NCBI GenBank assembly: GCA_964481315.1
Contig: CAYZVB010000004.1
Location: 1-32,000 of the forward strand
Source of the DNA: an uncultured Granulosicoccaceae bacterium
Lineage (GTDB): Bacteria > Pseudomonadota > Gammaproteobacteria > Granulosicoccales > Granulosicoccaceae
Length of the DNA: 32,000 bases
Direction: 5' to 3'
Positions 5,500-14,687 of this stretch are shown here, piece by piece; the stretch's first letter is position 1; every line of letters begins with the position of its first letter. The notes under the pieces are model-generated. The model was not told the DNA's origin and did not search any database. It was given only the letters and a program-made list of their open reading frames with translations. The position numbers and the translations under genes were made by a program.

Positions 5500-6597
5500 T
5501 TACGTATTGCTTCCGCTAAACCAGTCGAGCTTGTCGTGTAACGTAACCACATGACCGATGATCAGCATAGTCGGTGCAGTTACTTCGCTTCGTGCTACCA
5601 GTGCGGGCAGGTGTTCGAGTGTGCTTGCCAGTACCCGCTGTTGTGGCTGGGTGCCTTGTTGCACCAGTGCTGCCGGCGTATCCGCGGCACGGCCGTGGGT
5701 AATCATTGCGGCACAGATTTGTTCGAGCCCGGTCAGTCCCATATAAACCACCACCGTCAGTTGCGGTGATACCAGCTCGTTCCAGTTCAGGTTGATTTCA
5801 CCGTTGCGCAGGTGGCCGGTCACAAACACCACAGACTGTGCATGGTCACGGTGGGTGAGGGGGATGCCGGCAAACGCGGCACAGCCACTGGCTGCGGTAA
5901 TGCCGGGCACAACCTGGAACGGCACTCGTTTTTCTGCCAGCGTTTCGATTTCTTCGCCGCCGCGGCCAAAGATGAACGGGTCGCCGCCTTTTAAGCGCAC
6001 CACATTGGCGGGGCGCTGTGCCAGTGTCACCAGTAAATCGTTAATCGATTCCTGCGGCAGCGTGTGGTTGGACTTTGCCTTGCCCGCGTAGATGAATTCG
6101 GCGGCCGGGTTGCAGCGCGCCATAATCGGTTTGCTGACCAGTCTGTCGTAAACAATAACATCGGCTTCCTGAATCAGTCGCAGCGCGCGCAGTGTGAGCA
6201 GTTCGGGGTCGCCGGGACCGGCGCCCACCAGTGCCACTTTGCCCTGGTGCTGGCCGTGTTGTTGATGATCGGTTTGGCTGAGCATCCAGCTTGCGTGCTG
6301 TGGATTGTCGATGCTGTAGCAGAAGCGGTTGCGCTGGTCGCACCAGTCGAGCACCTGTCGGTTAACGGCGGGGTCGTCGCCGGCGGCGATGACCAGCCAG
6401 TGGTGGTCAATGTCGTCGGTGCTAACCGCACGTGCTTCGCAGCGAATCTGTTTGGTTTCGGTGGTGGCGCTGCCAATCATCAGCACACTGGCACGGTGCA
6501 GCACAAGCCATTCGGCCAGACGCACTGCCTGAGCGGAGTTGCCAATCACAAGACACGGGCGGTTTTCTAAACGGAGCGGGGCATGGAGCAATTGCAT
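5500..6597 (-). CDS. CysG-like uroporphyrinogen-III C-methyltransferase with a shortened N-terminal Rossmann remnant
   Basis: The C-terminal 250 aa is close to E. coli CysG SUMT ([66 protein letters not shown]). The N-terminal ~105 aa ([16 protein letters not shown] ... [15 protein letters not shown] ... RFCYSIDNP) matches only the first half of the CysG dehydrogenase/ferrochelatase module. I place the start at ATG 6597, because the 120 codons upstream in the ORF track look non-protein-like. Confidence 0.8.
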
Positions 6598-6741
6598 GCG
6601 CCAATAGTAACGAAATTTGTCTGAAGATGAGACGGCATCGGGTCGCGTTTGACGGAATATTCCGGCTTTTTTCGAACCGGTGGCAAGCCCTATTTCTAAG
6701 GGGATATTGAATGTGGCGCGCCACAGTAATACCCTCGACCG

Positions 6742-6963
6742 GTGGCTTATCATGTCTTTGAAATAAATCCTTTTCAGCAGCTGACTTACCTGCAGTCGCA
6801 CCCGAAATATCGGGAGGCGAAAGATTTCCTGAGTCAGTGTCGCAACGCACCCGGTGTGGTGAAAGGCACAACTTTCCGTATGATGTTTGCTGACAACCCC
6901 GATCAGGCCGAGCGGCTGCTGAAACAAAAACGCCCGCCGCGGCCGATGGGCGAGCACGATTAA
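6742..6963 (+). CDS. Possible small hypothetical protein (73 aa, GTG start)
   Basis: This is the only protein-like frame in the 400-bp cysG-tusA gap ([61 protein letters not shown]). It has no clear Shine-Dalgarno sequence and starts at GTG, so support is weak. Confidence 0.3.
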
Positions 6964-6999
6964 TCAATTAATAAAAATGCCTAAGAGCGAGGAACCCAA

Positions 7000-7230
7000 T
7001 TGAGCGACTTTACCAAAGAGCTTGATGCCAGCGGACTAAACTGCCCGATGCCTATTTTGCGCGCAAAAAAAGCCCTCAAAGAGCTGCAGTCGGGTGACAT
7101 ACTGCGAATTATCGCTACCGACCCGGGCTCTGTTAAAGACTTTGAGGCGTTCGCCAAGCAAACCGGCAACGAGCTGCTTGAGTCTAGCGAAGACGGCGAC
7201 AGTTTTGTTTACCGCCTGAAGAAAGCCTGA
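7000..7230 (+). CDS. TusA-family sulfurtransferase / sulfur carrier
   Basis: It has the LDASGLNCPMPILRAKKAL CPxP active-site motif and a ~76-aa alpha/beta TusA size. The start is TTG with a GAGG Shine-Dalgarno sequence 8 nt upstream. Confidence 0.85.
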   Translation: MSDFTKELDASGLNCPMPILRAKKALKELQSGDILRIIATDPGSVKDFEAFAKQTGNELLESSEDGDSFVYRLKKA

Positions 7231-7251
7231 TTAGTAAGAAAGCCTGATTAG
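7219..7251 (+). repeat. Perfect tandem duplication (16 bp x2, 17-bp period) covering the tusA stop codon
   Basis: AAGAAAGCCTGATTAG occurs at 7219-7234 and again at 7236-7251, separated by a single T. Confidence 0.85.
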
Positions 7252-7314
7252 CAGGCGCTTTGCTTCCAAAATTACCCGTATTTCCTGAATTCAAAACCGG
7301 GGCGCTCTAAGTCA

Positions 7315-8454
7315 ATGGAATTCACCAATATCCACCTGGTCACTACGCTGGGTTTTGTTCTGGCGCTGATTTTCGGTGCTGTCGCCAATCGCACCAACTT
7401 CTGCACCATGGGGGCGGTAAGCGACTGGGTGAATATGGGGCTGAAAGGCCGCCTTGGCGCGTGGGTGCTGGCCATGGGAATTGCCGTTGCCGGTGCGCAG
7501 ATTCTCGAGCTGACCGGCCTGGTTGACGTTGGCAGCAGTATTTACCGCACCACCAATTTCGGACTCGGCGGCTATATTATTGGCGGGTTGTTGTTTGGTG
7601 TTGGCATGACGCTCGGAGGCGGGTGCGGTCAGCGCACGCTGGTGAGGGTCGGTACCGGCAACCTTAAGTCTCTGGTGGTGTTACTTATTCTCGCAATCTC
7701 GGCCTACATGACGCTTCGCGGCCTGTTTGCGGTACTGCGGGTGGCGGCTATTGAGCCGATGACCATTGACCTTGGCGAACAGGGCATTGCTGATCAGGGG
7801 CTTGCCAGTGTGCTGAGTGGCTGGTTCGGGTTTGAAGCAACTAATGCGGTGCGCTGGGGAATTGGACTATTAGTGGCTGCGCTGCTGATTTTGTGGGCGC
7901 TAAAGCAGGAGGCGCTGCGGGAGAGTCGCGACAATCTGGTGGCCGGCATTGTGATTGGTTTAATCATTACCGCGGCCTGGGTAGTGACCGGCTTGATCGG
8001 GGTGGACGACTTTGACCCGGTACCAGTCGAGGCCATGAGTTTCATCGCACCTACCGGCAACACGCTGAGCTACCTGATGACTTTCACCGGTGCAACCATC
8101 AACTTTGGTATTGCCATAGTATTTGGCGTGATTGCAGGTTCTTTTCTATATGCGTTGTTTAGCCGTACCTTTGCGATAGAAACCTTTTCTGATCGCGGTG
8201 ATATGGTCAACCATTTAAGCGGCGGGTTACTGATGGGGTTTGGCGGTGTGCTGGCGCTTGGCTGTACCGTTGGACAATCGATTAGCGGTATATCTACGCT
8301 GGCGCTGGGGTCTTTTGTTGCTGCTATTTCCATTGTTATTGGCAGTGCTTTTACCATGCGTGTGCAATACCATCGCATGGATGACATGGGGCTGTTTAAG
8401 GCATGGGGCGTTGGACTGGCTGATGTACTAATGCCGTGGCGCATGAAAGACTGA
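7315..8454 (+). CDS. YeeE/YedE-family inner-membrane sulfur (thiosulfate-type) transporter
   Basis: The protein is polytopic and Gly-rich. It carries three Cys motifs typical of YeeE: NRTNFCTMGAVSDW, LGGGCGQRTLVR and LALGCTVGQSISG. It lies directly downstream of the tusA-like gene. Confidence 0.85.
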   Translation: MEFTNIHLVTTLGFVLALIFGAVANRTNFCTMGAVSDWVNMGLKGRLGAWVLAMGIAVAGAQILELTGLVDVGSSIYRTTNFGLGGYIIGGLLFGVGMTLGGGCGQRTLVRVGTGNLKSLVVLLILAISAYMTLRGLFAVLRVAAIEPMTIDLGEQGIADQGLASVLSGWFGFEATNAVRWGIGLLVAALLILWALKQEALRESRDNLVAGIVIGLIITAAWVVTGLIGVDDFDPVPVEAMSFIAPTGNTLSYLMTFTGATINFGIAIVFGVIAGSFLYALFSRTFAIETFSDRGDMVNHLSGGLLMGFGGVLALGCTVGQSISGISTLALGSFVAAISIVIGSAFTMRVQYHRMDDMGLFKAWGVGLADVLMPWRMKD

Positions 8455-8457
8455 TGC

Positions 8458-8832
8458 ATGTCTGAAAACACGCTGAAGTTTTTTCGCAAGGCACCTGACT
8501 CCGCGCAAATCGCCGACGAACCCAGTACCTGCAAGGAAGCCGAACCGTTTGCGTTAAGAGTGCTCGATGACAGCATGGAGCCTGAATTCAGGCGTGGCTG
8601 TATTATCGTGATCGACCCGACCGGACGTGCCACCGATGGCAGTTACGTTCTGGTGGAAGGGCAAACCGATGTGTTGTTCAGGCAGCTGAAAAAAAACGGC
8701 AGCGACTGGCAACTGCAACCACTCAATACACAGTACGCAGCTTCAAACGAAGTAAAGAACGATTTAAGTAACGTGATGGGCATCATTGTGCAGCGGGCCG
8801 GCGTCAGGCGCAGCTACCACAAACACTATTAG
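8458..8832 (+). CDS. Stand-alone S24 (LexA/UmuD-fold) domain protein without an HTH
   Basis: FALRVLDDSMEPEFRRGCIIVID ... DVLFRQLKKNGSDWQLQPLN ... VMGIIVQ parallels LexA [23 protein letters not shown] ... EVTVKRLKKQGNKVELLPEN ... GVIR. The ATG lies 3 nt after the yeeE stop. Confidence 0.75.
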   Translation: MSENTLKFFRKAPDSAQIADEPSTCKEAEPFALRVLDDSMEPEFRRGCIIVIDPTGRATDGSYVLVEGQTDVLFRQLKKNGSDWQLQPLNTQYAASNEVKNDLSNVMGIIVQRAGVRRSYHKHY

Positions 8833-8868
8833 CCCGTAGCTGTAGAGTCGCTGCCAACCTGTTTGCAG

Positions 8869-9552
8869 CTATACCTCTGACCACATTCGCAGCAGGTTGG
8901 TATAGGCCCTGTCTACCGTTGCAGTGACCTGAGCCGCTTTTGCTGATAAATGCAGTGCCTGCCGGGCTTCGTCAAGGTCACTGAGTATTTCACGTTGTTC
9001 AGCACTCCTCACCAGGCTTTGTGCCCACAACACACAGGCCAGCCGTTGCCCTGCAGTAATTTCGGTGACCTCGTGAAGGCTTGATGCGGGATACACTACG
9101 GCAGCACCTGCATCGAGCTTTACGTTAACCGGTCCGAAGTGCGTGTGTATTTTTAGTTCGCCGCCGTCGTAGCTGTCTTTGTTACTTAAAAAGACGGTCA
9201 CCGCAATATCGCTGCGATAACGCGCCGAGGCGCTTCCCATCACCGGATCGTCAACGTGTGGCTGGTACTGCATACCGGTACCATAGCGCGATACAAAAGC
9301 AGCAGATACCTTACTGGGCAAAGCAGCACGTTGAAATGTTTCGTGTTTATACAGCTTGGTGACCACCAGTTGATTAATGGTTTTCCAGCTTTCGCAGCGC
9401 TGATCCATTTCATCATTGTGTTTAATTTCTGCTGCGTGCGCACCTGCACTGTGCCGACCCGACTGCCAATCAGCGGTGTTAACCAGCTGATTGATTGTTT
9501 CAAGTTCGTCGGCGCTGAGTACATTTTGTATGGTAGTAAGCATAGTGTGCAC
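8869..9552 (-). CDS. PKHD-type Fe(II)/2-oxoglutarate hydroxylase (PiuC/YbiX family)
   Basis: It is colinear with E. coli YbiX: the N-terminus IQNVLSADELETI, the HVDD facial triad, SYDGGEL, VVYPASSLHEVTEIT, and the C-terminus YTNLLRMWSEV versus YHNLLREWSEI. Confidence 0.85.
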   Translation of the reverse strand: MHTMLTTIQNVLSADELETINQLVNTADWQSGRHSAGAHAAEIKHNDEMDQRCESWKTINQLVVTKLYKHETFQRAALPSKVSAAFVSRYGTGMQYQPHVDDPVMGSASARYRSDIAVTVFLSNKDSYDGGELKIHTHFGPVNVKLDAGAAVVYPASSLHEVTEITAGQRLACVLWAQSLVRSAEQREILSDLDEARQALHLSAKAAQVTATVDRAYTNLLRMWSEV

Positions 9553-9585
9553 TTATAAAGGATTTAAAGTGTGCTGCGTGTTTGT

Positions 9586-9614
9586 GTAGGGTGGATAAGC
9601 GGAGCGCATCCACC
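9586..9614. repeat. REP-like imperfect palindrome / hairpin between the two oxygenase genes
   Basis: GTAGGGTGGATAAGCGGAGCGCATCCACC has stems GGTGGAT/ATCCACC plus GCG/CGC. Its style resembles enterobacterial REP units (GTAGG..GGATAAG..GCATCC..). I saw only one copy in the window. Confidence 0.4.
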
Positions 9615-9648
9615 TTTTGTTACCCCCGCATGGGTATACCGACAATAG

Positions 9649-10227
9649 TCACGCAAACAACACCCAGGTTGTAGCAATATACTTCACACCCTGTGTGAGC
9701 GTGACGCCACGATGTTCATGCGTCCAGAACGGTGGAAACAACACCAGCTTACCGGCCTGCGGTGTGATTTTTAAATTCTGCAGTCTGAATTCTGTTTCTC
9801 CACCGGGGCCGGGCACATCATTGAGGTACCATATTGCAACCAGTTGTCTGTCACTGAACGAGTGGCTGCCGCTGTCGACGTGCCAGTGAAAATACTCGCC
9901 CTCATTGGTGCGCTGAATGGCGTACCCGAAATCTTTAAAGCGCCCCGAAAAAAACGGGTGCTGTGCGCGCATAAATTTTATGCCGCCTGCCAGTGACTGA
10001 AACAGTAACTGATCAATGTCTTTCCAGTGTGGCTTGCCGCTTATAACGAGGTCGGTAGAACGTTTAATATCCATATTAACGTTTTCTGTCTGGCCGATTC
10101 GTCCCTGGTATTGTTCATCGGTGGCCGATTCAAAACGATCAATAATGGTGCTGCACTGGGCGGCAGACAACGCGTTGTCGCGAACATAGATCTGCGTTGC
10201 CGGCGCGATCTCGTGGAAGTCATTCAT
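9649..10227 (-). CDS. Small 2OG-Fe(II) oxygenase (prolyl-4-hydroxylase-like fold)
   Basis: It has the HWHVD (HxD) motif and the distal FPPFWTHEHRG His, plus AIWYLNDV..GGETEF, which is typical of P4H-type double-stranded beta-helix enzymes. The start overlaps the upstream stop (ATGA at 10224-10227). Confidence 0.8.
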   Translation of the reverse strand: MNDFHEIAPATQIYVRDNALSAAQCSTIIDRFESATDEQYQGRIGQTENVNMDIKRSTDLVISGKPHWKDIDQLLFQSLAGGIKFMRAQHPFFSGRFKDFGYAIQRTNEGEYFHWHVDSGSHSFSDRQLVAIWYLNDVPGPGGETEFRLQNLKITPQAGKLVLFPPFWTHEHRGVTLTQGVKYIATTWVLFA

Positions 10228-11279
10228 GGTTGTTTTTGCACTGCCTGTTCGATAGTCGTTTTGTAGTCAAAGCCTGTACCGCTGCGGCTGAACTCTTCAA
10301 TCAGTTGTGTTGCGACAAACTGCCAGCGTTGTTGTTCGGTATTGATATGCGCTGAAAGCGCTTTGATTGGGTTGGTACTGTCTAATAACTTCTGCTGTAA
10401 ACCAATCGGTTCCAGTAGGGATTCACGAATACCCTGCAGCCCGGCCAGCCAGAAATCGAGATGGGCTGATGCCTGATGTTCTACGATGTATGGCCAGGTA
10501 CCGAGTGAGTCGGCCAGCAAGTCACCTACCGCTCTTATATAACCCTCACCGGGTTTTCCCTGCAGGCTGAGCAGCATGTTTAAATAGTCACTGCCGAGAT
10601 GTTTGTTGGCGTTGATCTCACCCTGTTCGTGGTGAATGAATACGGGGCTTAAGTCAGTGGCGGCAGCGGCAATCCGGTTGTCGTCAGGGTGGTTTGCATC
10701 AATGTGGTAGTGCGCAAGCAGCCGCGCCATTGGCCCGGGGTTTTTACGCAGGCGCCACTCTGCGGTCATTTGCCAGAGCATTCTTTTGATTGCATCGTGA
10801 CGGATAATAATGGTGCCGTCGCGTGACATGGCCGGCAGCGTGATGGAGTCACGCGCAATTTCACGACCGAGTTCCAGTTGCGGGTAGGGTGCATTGCTGC
10901 GCTGCAGGCACTCTGCCAGTACAAAGTGCGGTTGCCCCAGGCGGCCGTATCCTGCCGTGTATACCAGTGGTGAATCTTCCAGTGCGCGGTTAATCGCATC
11001 ACTGTCGAACGGATGGTATGCGGTTTTATTGATGGTGAGCGGTTTGAATTCTGTTTCTTCGATGGTGTCCCAGTAGTCTTCGGTTTCGCGCACCCAGTTA
11101 CCGAGCACTTCACCGTCGATAGGGCCATCGAGTGACAGGTTGTTTTTCCAGCGATAGTGTTCCTGCATGCGCAACAGGTAAACACACATGGAATAATCAC
11201 GTGCGAAGCGTGCATCGGAGATGTCGCAGTTGTGTTGCACTGTTTGCTGCAGTTTGGAATTCAGTGCCTTCATCAGCAC
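10224..11279 (-). CDS. Conserved-looking hypothetical protein (351 aa), function unknown
   Basis: Long clean ORF with protein-like composition, translationally coupled to the 2OG oxygenase. I can name no catalytic motif. His/Asp-rich patches are present (HYHIDANHPDD, FIHHEQGE). Confidence 0.7.
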   Translation of the reverse strand: MLMKALNSKLQQTVQHNCDISDARFARDYSMCVYLLRMQEHYRWKNNLSLDGPIDGEVLGNWVRETEDYWDTIEETEFKPLTINKTAYHPFDSDAINRALEDSPLVYTAGYGRLGQPHFVLAECLQRSNAPYPQLELGREIARDSITLPAMSRDGTIIIRHDAIKRMLWQMTAEWRLRKNPGPMARLLAHYHIDANHPDDNRIAAAATDLSPVFIHHEQGEINANKHLGSDYLNMLLSLQGKPGEGYIRAVGDLLADSLGTWPYIVEHQASAHLDFWLAGLQGIRESLLEPIGLQQKLLDSTNPIKALSAHINTEQQRWQFVATQLIEEFSRSGTGFDYKTTIEQAVQKQP

Positions 11280-11439
11280 AGCATACCACGGCCTTTTTTA
11301 GCAGGTGGCGCCTTTGTTTGTGCGCTTTATAAGTGGACGGGGTAACATAGGCAAAAGCATTAACCGGAGCAACATATTGGCGGGTCGACGCATAAGAGAT
11401 CGTTGGCATAACTCAACTCCCGAGCGCGATAACCGTGAT

Positions 11440-11967
11440 GTGATCGGCGAGAAGTCGTCAGATGATCAGGCCAGTGCGCTTGCGTTTATATTGTGGCGTC
11501 ACGCCCTGAACGGGGCAATCAATCTGCACGCAGAAGATTTTCGCTATGACTCTGATCAGCAGCGCATTGGTGTCATTAGTGAGTTGCTTGCGTTTCAAAT
11601 TCAACACGTTGACCGCCTGACTCACAGTTTTATTGATCAGCAGTCACGCAGTGCACTAATTACCGAATTGTGCAATAAAGTCGCGCAGCATATGCAGGAG
11701 AATTTAAGCGATATTGCGGGGCCGGGGAATTACATTCCACCGTTTATTGCACTGTTGAACAAACGCTTCGAAAGCTACGCCGAATTTTCCTACAACGATG
11801 ATATTCCGGGTTATGGCAGCTTTCGTTATCTTGGTCATCAGGTACTGGAGATCATGGGCGAAGATCAGGACAACCGCTGGGTGATTGATCAGATCATCGA
11901 GATTGATGCACCGGATATTACCGAACAGGTAACCAAATCGACTCAGCGTTTGTTTGGTCGCGACTAG
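11440..11967 (+). CDS. Hypothetical protein (~175 aa; the ORF is open from 11305)
   Basis: The frame is protein-like from about GTG 11440 (VIGEKSSDDQASALAFILWRH...). The first 45 codons of the ORF-track version are Arg/Gly-rich and overlap the divergent promoter region. The start is uncertain. The stop overlaps the convergent gene (CTAG). Confidence 0.5.
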   Translation: MIGEKSSDDQASALAFILWRHALNGAINLHAEDFRYDSDQQRIGVISELLAFQIQHVDRLTHSFIDQQSRSALITELCNKVAQHMQENLSDIAGPGNYIPPFIALLNKRFESYAEFSYNDDIPGYGSFRYLGHQVLEIMGEDQDNRWVIDQIIEIDAPDITEQVTKSTQRLFGRD

Positions 11968-12926
11968 TTTGCTGTGTAATCGGTTAACAGTTCTGTGCGG
12001 TCGAGTCCGGCCAGCTGTGAACGCCATTCGTTCTGCGTGCCGGCGCTTAGGTATAGTTTTAGCGGTTGTGTACTTTGCTGCTGCAGTGCGGTAATTGCGC
12101 TATTTAAGCCGGTTTTGTCGGATAATGGCTGGTAAGAAAACCAGTCGAATGCATCCGCCCAGCTGCGACACAGGTTATGCCGATAGTGGTTTGATGCTAC
12201 CCACAGCAGTGAGCAGTCGGGGTCAGTTTCGGTCGCCATGATATGTTCGATCATGGGTTTGGCGACTGCAAAGTTTGTATCTACCGTGACAAATACATGA
12301 TGAAAGCGGGTGAGTGTGTTGTCGTCAACGGCAAAGCGTCCATGCGGGCCTTCAACAGTAATGCGTTCACGCTTTGGAAGTTGCACAATTGCCTGCTGCA
12401 GTTCTGTGTGCTCCGCGCTTATGTGAAATTCCAGTGTGCCTGCTTCGCAGGGGCAGGTGGCAATCGGCAGCAGCTGTGGAGTGCAGCCGGGGATGTGTAT
12501 GTTTGCGTATTGTCCGGCCAGAAACCATAACGCCTTGCCGCGCAGGATTTTCAGTCGAATCACCAACACATCGTCAATGGTTTCAGCGTGGCAAATACGG
12601 GTATTTAGCTGCTGCAGTGGAATGTCTTCAGCGTTGCCTGCTTCGGTCACTTCAATGTCGATTGGTGTCAGTGCCTTATGGCTGCACAGTAAAACCACAC
12701 CGGCACTTTTCTCTGCGGCGGTGAGTGTGTAGTCGTGAAAGGCGGTGGCTTCGACTTTCCCCGTGACTATTCGTGCGCGGCATTCACCGCAGCTGCCGTT
12801 GCTGCAGCGATACGGCAATGCAATGCCTGCCCGCAGTCCCGATTCCAGCACGCTTGAATGCGGGGCGGAAATAAACTGTTTACCGCTCGGAAGCAGTGTT
12901 ACCAGCGGGTGCTGCGGGTCAGCCAT
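11964..12926 (-). CDS. 2Fe-2S ferredoxin domain fused to an FNR-like (degenerate) reductase domain
   Basis: It has a plant-type cluster motif, CSNGSCGECRARIVTG ... LLCSH. Downstream lie a beta-barrel plus Rossmann-like region with EGPHGRF. The RxYS and GGTGxAP positions read LPIAT and VDTNFAVAKP. Confidence 0.75.
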   Translation of the reverse strand: MADPQHPLVTLLPSGKQFISAPHSSVLESGLRAGIALPYRCSNGSCGECRARIVTGKVEATAFHDYTLTAAEKSAGVVLLCSHKALTPIDIEVTEAGNAEDIPLQQLNTRICHAETIDDVLVIRLKILRGKALWFLAGQYANIHIPGCTPQLLPIATCPCEAGTLEFHISAEHTELQQAIVQLPKRERITVEGPHGRFAVDDNTLTRFHHVFVTVDTNFAVAKPMIEHIMATETDPDCSLLWVASNHYRHNLCRSWADAFDWFSYQPLSDKTGLNSAITALQQQSTQPLKLYLSAGTQNEWRSQLAGLDRTELLTDYTAN

Positions 12927-13421: not shown

Positions 13422-14687
13422 ATGCAAAAAATTAATCGGCGACAATTCAACGCGATCCTGGGCGCAGGCGTCGCATCACTGGCGCTGCCCTTCAATATCG
13501 GCGCGCAGGCCAAGCCCAAGGTGGTTGTTATTGGTGGTGGTGCAGGTGGCGCAACTGCCGCGCGTACCATGGCTATGTCGGGCGCTGTTGATGTCACACT
13601 GATCACCGCATCAGACTCGTACACCACCTGCTTCTTTTCCAATTTGTACCTGGGTGGCTTTAGAGAGTTTGAGTCTATTACCCACGGCTACGACAAGCTG
13701 CAGGCTGCCGGTGTGAACGTGGTTACCGGTTTTGCCACCGGTGTTGATATGGACGCTAAATCAGTCAGTCTTGAAGACGGGTCTTCCGTCGCCTACGACC
13801 GCGTTGTTGTTGCGCCTGGCATCGATCTCAAATACGACACTGTGCCGGGGTATTCTGAAGCCGACGCAGAAATCGCACCGCACGCGTGGCAGGCCGGAAC
13901 CCAAACCCAGTTGCTTAAAGCCAAACTCGATGCGATGGAAGATGGCGACAATATCGTGATGGTACCTCCGCCAAACCCCTATCGCTGCCCGCCGGGACCA
14001 TACGAGCGTGTTTCCATGATGGCGCATATGCTTAAAACCCGCGGCATGAATAAAAGCAAAATTATTATTCTCGATCCAAAGCCAAAGTTCTCGAAGCAGG
14101 GACTGTTTCAGGAAGGCTGGGAAAAGCACTACGCCGGCATGATTGAATGGTACGGCCCTGATGTACACGGCGGTGTGGTTAACGTCGATGCCAAGTCAGG
14201 TACGGTTGAAACCGACCTTGATGAATTCCAGGGCGCGGTACTGAATGTGGTTCCAGGCCAGCAGGCAGGTTCAATTGCGATGGCTTCGGGCTTAACCGAC
14301 GACTCCGGCTTTTGTCCTATCGATGCTAACTCCATGCGTTCGACAGTGAATGAAAACGTATTTGTTTTGGGCGATGCCAGTATTGCCGGTGCCATGCCTA
14401 AGTCCGGCTTTTCGGCGAACAGTCAGGCCAAGGTTGCATCCAATGCAATAATGGCGGAATTAACCGGTGCCGAGGCAGGGCCTGCCAGTTATTCAAATAC
14501 CTGCTGGAGCCTTATTGCTACTGACGACGGCGTTAAAGTAGGGGCACAGTACGCGCCTGAAGACGGCAAAATTGCTGCTACTTCCAAGTTCATTAGCCAG
14601 ACCGGCGAAGATGGAGAGCTTCGCAAGACTACCTACCTTGAATCCCTTGGTTGGTATGCCGGAATCACTGCAGATATGTTTGGGTAA
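13422..14687 (+). CDS. Tat-exported FccB/SoxF-like sulfide dehydrogenase flavoprotein
   Basis: It has a twin-arginine signal (MQKINRRQFNAILGAGVASLALPFNIGAQA) and an FAD GxGxxG motif (VVVIGGGAGGATAA). It also has PYRCPPGPYERVSM, GFCPID and VFVLGDAS...MPKSGFSANSQAK, as in flavocytochrome c flavin subunits. A GGGGAG Shine-Dalgarno sequence lies upstream. Confidence 0.85.
   Translation: MQKINRRQFNAILGAGVASLALPFNIGAQAKPKVVVIGGGAGGATAARTMAMSGAVDVTLITASDSYTTCFFSNLYLGGFREFESITHGYDKLQAAGVNVVTGFATGVDMDAKSVSLEDGSSVAYDRVVVAPGIDLKYDTVPGYSEADAEIAPHAWQAGTQTQLLKAKLDAMEDGDNIVMVPPPNPYRCPPGPYERVSMMAHMLKTRGMNKSKIIILDPKPKFSKQGLFQEGWEKHYAGMIEWYGPDVHGGVVNVDAKSGTVETDLDEFQGAVLNVVPGQQAGSIAMASGLTDDSGFCPIDANSMRSTVNENVFVLGDASIAGAMPKSGFSANSQAKVASNAIMAELTGAEAGPASYSNTCWSLIATDDGVKVGAQYAPEDGKIAATSKFISQTGEDGELRKTTYLESLGWYAGITADMFG

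Follow-up and report, generated by a model that had tools for sequence, protein, structure and literature searches.

Is a small S24-fold protein encoded directly behind a tusA-yeeE sulfur-uptake pair a dedicated part of the importer, or does it belong to something else? The question is raised by the window analyzed here, the first 32,000 nucleotides (nt) of contig CAYZVB010000004.1 (assembly GCA_964481315.1, forward strand) from an uncultured Granulosicoccaceae bacterium, in which a TusA-type sulfur carrier (7000..7230), a YeeE/YedE-family permease (7315..8454) and a 124-amino-acid (aa) protein (8458..8832) are encoded on the plus strand. The original prediction, made from the DNA letters, described the third protein as an S24 barrel without a helix-turn-helix (HTH) and offered it as a new regulatory, gating or processing subunit of the transporter. 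The results given below indicate that this S24-like protein is one of a family of large extent, unnamed, and made up of stand-alone S24-fold proteins, in which comparison of sequences suggests that the Ser/Lys dyad was most likely abandoned on the S24 scaffold and a new conserved Cys-centered site evolved. Our favored reading, to which we give a probability of roughly 0.4, is that the protein is a non-proteolytic S24 scaffold whose Cys-centered site serves sulfur- and siroheme-linked metabolism, and that it is no subunit of YeeE. Within that reading our confidence is high that the protein is a pseudo-peptidase with a Cys-centered site and not a YeeE subunit, and low for any specific sulfur-relay chemistry.

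Fold and catalytic residues

S24 domains, as in LexA, lambda cI and UmuD, are textbook self-cleaving switches. By sequence and by predicted fold the S24-like protein belongs among them. It matched PF00717 with 59.8 bits (cutoff 23.3, E 2.5e-16) over profile positions 23-114 of 116, and the two upstream genes were likewise recognized far above chance (PF01206, 1.2e-25, for TusA; PF04143, 7.1e-63, for YeeE). The three same-strand reading frames stand where the original prediction had placed them. An AlphaFold2 (AF2) model built on a 113-sequence alignment had a predicted local distance difference test score (pLDDT) of 86.6 overall and above 95 in the core; a shallow alignment of 30 sequences had given a pLDDT of 53 and was discarded in its favor. 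Foldseek matched the model to the C-terminal domains (CTD) of lambda cI and LexA and to UmuD' (1f39, 6a2q, 1jhe, 1umu), with a root-mean-square deviation of 2.3-2.9 Å over about 90-100 residues. For the cI and LexA domains the target-normalized template modeling (TM) score was 0.75-0.78, and the sequences were colinear through both the (G/D)xSM motif and the general-base strand. The closest solved homologue in profile alignment was the lambda cI CTD. The earlier description of a LexA-colinear beta-barrel was therefore sound.

What is absent from this barrel is as informative as what is kept. LexA and cI have an HTH and a cleavage-site region, whereas the S24-like family has neither: scans of the 124-aa protein against Pfam and NCBIfam gave no match to any HTH family, residues 1-35, read directly, hold neither Ala-Gly nor Cys-Gly, and members of the family start at about cI residue 132-135, past the cleavage-site region (A111-G112 in cI). 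At the position of Lys192 in cI and Lys156 in LexA the family has an invariant Arg. This had been proposed from an alignment by eye, and it was upheld by phmmer and by the 113-sequence family profile, both of which aligned FRQL of the S24-like protein with FKKL of lambda cI; in the chain of the cI K192A mutant, the substituted Ala falls under Arg75. Ser39 of the window protein aligned with cI Ser149, as expected from the original prediction that the nucleophile is kept, although across the family this Ser is variable. Unlike cI and LexA, the family also has an invariant Cys of its own, a PEF motif and a basic tail ending K-x-Y. The protein lacks what marks catalytic and regulatory members of S24: a Lys base, a site for cleavage, an HTH and, in the case of UmuD, a umuC partner.

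The top Foldseek hit was UmuD', which likewise is a stand-alone S24 domain without a DNA-binding domain and works by binding a partner rather than DNA. UmuD, however, still has Ser60, Lys97 and the Cys24-Gly25 site of cleavage, and its gene is paired with umuC, whereas the S24-like protein has Arg in place of the Lys, and no umuC or other Y-family polymerase gene was found in the window or in the loci examined. An orthologue of UmuD was rejected on the absence of umuC and on a score of 24.6 bits with NCBIfam UmuD NF007621, well under its cutoff of 110; the score with the LexA model TIGR00498 was 22.4 bits (cutoff 110.95). The labels "S24 family peptidase," "LexA repressor" and "DNA polymerase V," under which members of the family are annotated at source, are misleading. 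The S26 pseudo-peptidase SipA provides a precedent for loss of catalytic residues in a protein of the S24/S26 fold that works instead as a binding or chaperone module. It was among the Foldseek matches but was distant (TM score about 0.5, 11-12% identity), and it is an extracytoplasmic factor of pilus assembly, whereas the S24-like family bears a distinct Cys/Arg/Tyr signature and, judged by eye from the sequence, appears cytoplasmic. Because inspection by eye, with no predictor run, showed neither a transmembrane segment nor a signal peptide, we also rejected a protein that is secreted or resembles a signal peptidase.

Conservation across the family

A word-indexed search returned 352 homologues, and when a profile was run exhaustively against 1.84 billion cluster representatives, 272 family representatives were returned at E<=1e-10, nearly all of them 100-200 aa long. 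Conservation was counted on the 145 of these 272 that were aligned to the family profile, with denominators that vary by position. The signature that emerged consists of a Cys before the first core strand (Cys25, 128/128), Met-x-Pro-Glu-Phe after the old Ser (Met40, 143/143; Pro42 and Glu43, 142/143 each; Phe44, 138/143), Arg75 at the Lys position (123/131), Gly108 (102/103), Gln112 (96/101) and a basic tail, QRAGVRRSYHKHY in the window protein, ending K-x-Y (Tyr124, 83/83). The canonical nucleophile was less constant: Ser39 was present in 122 of 138 representatives (88%), and the other 16 had Thr (7), Asp (5), Ala (2), Val (1) or Glu (1) while retaining Cys25, Arg75 and, if the C-terminus was present, the K-x-Y tail. 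In minimal members of about 102 aa, which begin MSGCAGSEPFAL (MSGC...), the invariant Cys is residue 3-4; the 24 residues that precede it in the window protein are a lineage-specific extension. Apart from the HTH plus S24 outgroup described below, scanning of long members for domain fusions gave weak or probably artefactual matches only (Band_7, NAD_binding_1).

These counts bear on whether peptidase activity might persist, with Ser39 paired to Arg75 or with Cys25 as the nucleophile, in which case the protein would either cut a partner in trans or trim its own tail at Ala114-Gly115. Such activity would fit the presence of Ser39 in the window protein and in most representatives, the conservation of the SM motif and of the core that forms the cleft, the Ala-Gly inside the conserved QRAGxRR and the small residues that stand before Cys25. 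Arg, however, is a poor general base, we know of no S24 enzyme that uses one, Ser gives way to Asp, Ala, Val or Glu in members in which every other invariant is retained, and Gly115 is found in only 66 of 95 representatives. We consider an active peptidase very doubtful, and degeneracy of the Ser/Lys dyad among family members makes the processing role offered in the original prediction unlikely.

Within the conserved C-terminal motif, QRAGVRR in the window protein, Ala114-Gly115 (codons 8797-8802) is the classic S24 cleavage dipeptide and is located just past the last core strand. Nothing points to cleavage there; a hypothetical cut would free a basic decapeptide ending K-x-Y.

A second possibility is decay: the gene would be all that is left of a full-length repressor of LexA or cI type, or would have been left behind by a prophage. 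The likeness to the cI CTD could be taken in this sense, as could the fact that the nearest relatives with Lys at position 75 are repressors of XRE-type HTH plus S24. Only 3 representatives have that Lys, and the two that were scanned, P0251 and P0258 (223-225 aa), are canonical HTH_3 plus S24 repressors and hence constitute an outgroup, while the Arg-type members all lack an HTH. Against decay, the ratio of nonsynonymous to synonymous substitution rates (dN/dS) with the closest orthologue was about 0.05 (synonymous sites were saturated), hundreds of conserved homologues without an HTH share the family-specific signature, annotation of the window found no phage genes near the locus, and base composition around it is uniform. 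The gene is under strong purifying selection. It is an intact gene and not a decaying repressor fragment, and an origin as a prophage or repressor remnant is effectively refuted.

Gene neighborhoods across lineages

If the protein were a dedicated accessory of TusA-YeeE import that regulates, gates or processes by acting on the permease or on TusA, its gene should stand beside yeeE wherever the family occurs. Loci were sampled from one-genome-per-species references (79) and from metagenomes (80), with additional look-ups of single proteins, and neighbors were annotated by BLAST, jackhmmer and de novo clustering of proteins; pooling gave 164 non-redundant loci, 154 of them with a readable upstream gene, and some counts were made on 142. 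The metagenomic sample was seeded with the minimal-type subfamily (the tighter alignment A4) and is biased to one subclade.

In the window, only 3 nt separate the yeeE stop from the S24-like ATG (TGA TGC ATG). A co-directional yeeE stood upstream in 20 of the 154 loci, representing 20 species-level genomes, all of Granulosicoccaceae type. Among these loci the order orf73-tusA-yeeE-S24 was kept, orf73 being a small conserved gene described below, with the S24-like gene as the last cistron, and most of 22 loci had a short yeeE-S24 gap of between -4 and about +30 nt. Gene order and short gaps together amount to real evidence of co-expression within this clade. In one related lineage (L005-L007) tusA is followed directly by the S24-like gene with no yeeE between, which would also suit an accessory of the uptake system. 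The recurrence of the linkage that the original prediction had anticipated is thus real, but it is confined to a single family-level clade and is repeatedly lost even there: on the S24 tree the yeeE-linked loci are interleaved with sister genomes of other arrangements. The remaining 134 of 154 loci had a different gene upstream, and genes on the opposite strand lay on both flanks in 45 of 142 loci, so the S24-like gene is often monocistronic. The apparent lack of any membrane segment in the protein also argues against such an accessory, and the characterized YeeE-YeeD systems are reported to work without a third protein (PMC11073785, PMC11582611). Since the family is found elsewhere beside cysG, rhodanese or unrelated genes, the S24-like protein is not a dedicated YeeE subunit; we regard the accessory role as quite unlikely, and the comparison gave no support to the regulatory or gating subunit.

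The most widespread neighbor across lineages is cysG. It was the immediate neighbor in 26 of 154 loci, in at least 4 arrangements or lineages, and lay within the locus in more. Some relatives without tusA-yeeE (L011, L014, L015, L018, L021, L026, L039) have the S24-like gene divergent from cysG and directly beside it. Thiothrix, Thiolinea, Thiofilum and their relatives have an orf73-like gene, cysG and the S24-like gene all in one direction, the S24-like gene starting -11 to 0 nt from the end of cysG, and a subset of the minimal-type metagenomic loci has cysG co-directional upstream (7 directly adjacent, 11 within the locus). A single-domain rhodanese was the convergent neighbor in 26 loci, and TusA and DsrC were occasional neighbors. 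At least one immediate neighbor was YeeE, CysG, TusA, DsrC or rhodanese in 62 of 142 loci (44%); the link to genes of sulfur transfer and siroheme is recurrent, though short of universal. Other recurrent neighbors were a divergent SlyD-like FKBP (28 loci), an MsbA-like ABC transporter (11), PtsI (10), malic enzyme (6) and a NarL/NarX-type two-component pair, and isolated loci adjoin RuBisCO or purEK.

Two arrangements deserve description in their own right. In L096-L175, metagenomic loci of the minimal ~102-aa subfamily, a divergent SlyD-like FKBP is followed by the S24-like gene and then by the convergent rhodanese, whose active-site loop is CRSGLRS; a NarL-type regulator with a GAF-HisKA_3 kinase lies beyond the rhodanese, and a pyrophosphate-type phosphofructokinase further upstream. 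In Granulosicoccaceae without tusA-yeeE (L011, L014, L021, L026, L039, L078, L084), the cysG/S24 pair is preceded, a few genes away, by genes for DsrC (PF04358, C-terminal PKPTGCV), a DsrM-like membrane protein and a DsrK-like Fe-S protein.

Proposed role

A sulfane-sulfur role, or one in thiol redox, is the most likely for the S24-like protein because TusA, rhodanese, DsrC/TusE and cysG recur nearby and because in a published model (PMC11582611) sulfur that enters through a YeeE-like importer is received by TusA, which passes it on to an acceptor or sensor bearing a Cys. We suggest that the protein acts as a binding or sensor module without Ser/Lys proteolysis, and that it is probably dimeric by analogy with the C-terminal domains of LexA, cI and UmuD'. 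The conserved, exposed N-terminal Cys would be its functional center. Cys25 may take up or sense sulfane sulfur or a redox signal, which would be brought by TusA after YeeE-mediated import in this bacterium and by rhodanese in other lineages, and the signal could be coupled, in the cytoplasm, to a siroheme- or sulfite-linked process. In a bolder form, which we think unlikely as it stands, TusA or, in other lineages, rhodanese would persulfidate Cys25, and the modified protein, presumably dimeric, would bind and tune a siroheme-linked target such as CysG or sulfite reductase by way of the old substrate cleft and the basic K-x-Y tail; were this true, it would represent a new class of sulfur-relay or signaling protein.

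A possible but less probable explanation leaves sulfur chemistry out: the protein would be an adaptor, generic and presumably dimeric, that binds other proteins in the manner of UmuD'. The Cys would then be structural or form a disulfide between subunits, and the sulfur neighbors would reflect synteny inherited within sulfur-oxidizing Gammaproteobacteria. This is consistent with a neighborhood that is highly variable across lineages, with the frequent monocistronic placement, and with the S24 fold as a known module for dimerization and partner binding that has inactive relatives, SipA among those matched by Foldseek. It accounts less well for the adjacency to cysG, which is seen repeatedly, in more than one orientation and in subclades far apart, at times with overlapping stop and start codons, or for the recurrence of three sulfur-transfer proteins (TusA, rhodanese and DsrC) as neighbors. 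Nor would a purely structural Cys ordinarily be exposed and conserved in 100% of members, even where it is residue 3-4.

Several observations weigh against a Cys-centered, non-proteolytic scaffold linked to sulfur. Many loci have no sulfur-related neighbor (RuBisCO, purEK, a phosphotransferase system/rpoN cluster, malic enzyme or FKBP instead), and the rhodanese neighbor, being convergent, is not operonic. Each sample of loci was dominated by one or two clades, so that part of what the neighbor counts show is inherited synteny and not a set of independent events. The AF2 model has a pLDDT of only about 69 near residues 21-30, around Cys25. Finally, Ser39 is intact in the window protein, and residual hydrolysis by Ser39 with Arg is for that reason conceivable.

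Literature searches found no description of the family and none that joined TusA, YeeE and S24, in agreement with the earlier statement that no sulfur-transporter accessory of this fold is known; searches for siroheme synthase with a LexA-like protein and for S24 with rhodanese gave nothing relevant, and the most relevant study of YeeE neighborhoods, the SoxT paper, makes no mention of a peptidase, a LexA-like protein or a siroheme-linked partner. What is new is a well-conserved S24 offshoot without HTH, cleavage site or catalytic Lys and with an invariant Cys and a basic tail, common in sulfur-oxidizing and sediment Gammaproteobacteria. Research on pseudo-enzymes gains a clean new case from it, and research on sulfur metabolism gains a candidate for a missing partner of TusA, rhodanese and CysG; the family would gain further interest should its Cys turn out to act as a persulfide acceptor. 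The YeeE-subunit reading was too narrow and would have misdirected experiments.

The transporter pair and companion genes

The tusA gene (7000..7230, plus strand) has a TTG start and encodes 76 aa with a sole Cys, Cys15, in the NCPMP motif; the permease (Sulf_transp, 379 aa, plus strand) has the three predicted Cys motifs at C30 (NFCTMGA), C104 (GGGCGQR) and C317 (ALGCTVGQ). As in the described TsuA-TsuB (YeeE-YeeD) and SoxT-TusA systems, a TusA-family carrier is paired with a YeeE-family permease that has three conserved Cys, and the model of import followed by handover to a cytoplasmic Cys carrier could apply to both. The window pair differs in its order, with tusA before yeeE, in the presence of an S24-fold third component, which the described systems do not have, and in scores that fall below the NCBIfam equivalog cutoffs: the carrier had 58.9 bits with TusA (cutoff 78) and 23.6 with TsuB/YeeD (cutoff 147.5), and the permease 95.7 and 68.9 bits with the two TsuA models (cutoffs 400 and 645). 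By sequence the permease is a member of the YeeE family and at most a putative TsuA orthologue.

The unit should be counted as four genes, because the conserved orf73 (6742..6963, plus strand, 73 aa) precedes tusA. Homologues of orf73, found by jackhmmer at 33 loci, precede tusA in Granulosicoccaceae and cysG in the Thiothrix group, where Thiothrix, Thiolinea and Thiofilum have a related protein of about 78 aa ahead of cysG-S24. The sequence has the pattern YHxFEINPF...YREAK...RMMFA... and matched no family in Pfam or NCBIfam; its homologues comprise 68 protein clusters, every one named "hypothetical" and none with a Pfam domain. The 84-nt spacer between tusA and yeeE holds a small GC-rich hairpin, GCCTGATTAGCAGGC (7242..7256, plus strand), which is possibly an element of attenuation, mRNA processing or mRNA stability and is a weak candidate; the consensus scan that picked it up counted 7 terminator-like sites in the scanned region where 3.1 were expected. 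The scan of 6500-9000 gave no persuasive candidate for a promoter or terminator inside the unit between yeeE and the S24-like gene, a result that says nothing for or against co-transcription.

Both flanking genes that had been taken to give a sulfur context, a divergent cysG-like and a nearby fccB-like gene, were verified by family matches. The second encodes an FccB-type flavocytochrome c sulfide dehydrogenase flavoprotein (13422-14687, plus strand; FCSD_central, FCSD-flav_bind). The first is a short form of the siroheme synthase family (5500..6597, minus strand; NF007922 at 415 bits, cutoff 400, with PF13241 and PF00590), whose start is likely the Met at 6597, the listed open reading frame of 5500-6957 being over-extended. 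Its Rossmann NAD-binding part is not separated from the SUMT domain by the roughly 90 aa found there in full-length orthologues, which correspond to the dimerization and sirohydrochlorin ferrochelatase subdomain. The short form is also found in L009, L010, L012, L013 and L014; the subdomain is kept in the Thiothrix-group loci and in L005, L027 and L066, and L018 has an unrelated insert at its position.

Downstream of the S24-like gene lies a convergent conserved cluster (8869..12926) that consists of a PKHD/YbiX-type 2-oxoglutarate (2OG)-Fe(II) dioxygenase (8869-9552, minus strand), a second 2OG-FeII_Oxy_3 protein (9649-10227, minus), a protein of the DUF6866 / NCBIfam Sfum_1244 family (10224-11279, minus), orf220, of about 200 aa and no assigned family (11305-11967, plus), and a Fer2/FAD reductase-like protein (11964-12926, minus). 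By count from the locus listings, the 2OG oxygenase/DUF6866/orf220/Fer2 cluster stands beside the S24-like gene in about 30 loci across subclades, even in the distant loci L087 (5980-8620) and L096, and in L022, L023, L025 and L058 orf220 is directly downstream of and co-directional with the S24-like gene. The cluster could be the true functional partner of the S24-like gene. One chromosome, OZ241870.1, has the S24-like gene twice, as paralogues located far apart (L047 and L050), only one of which adjoins a 2OG oxygenase.

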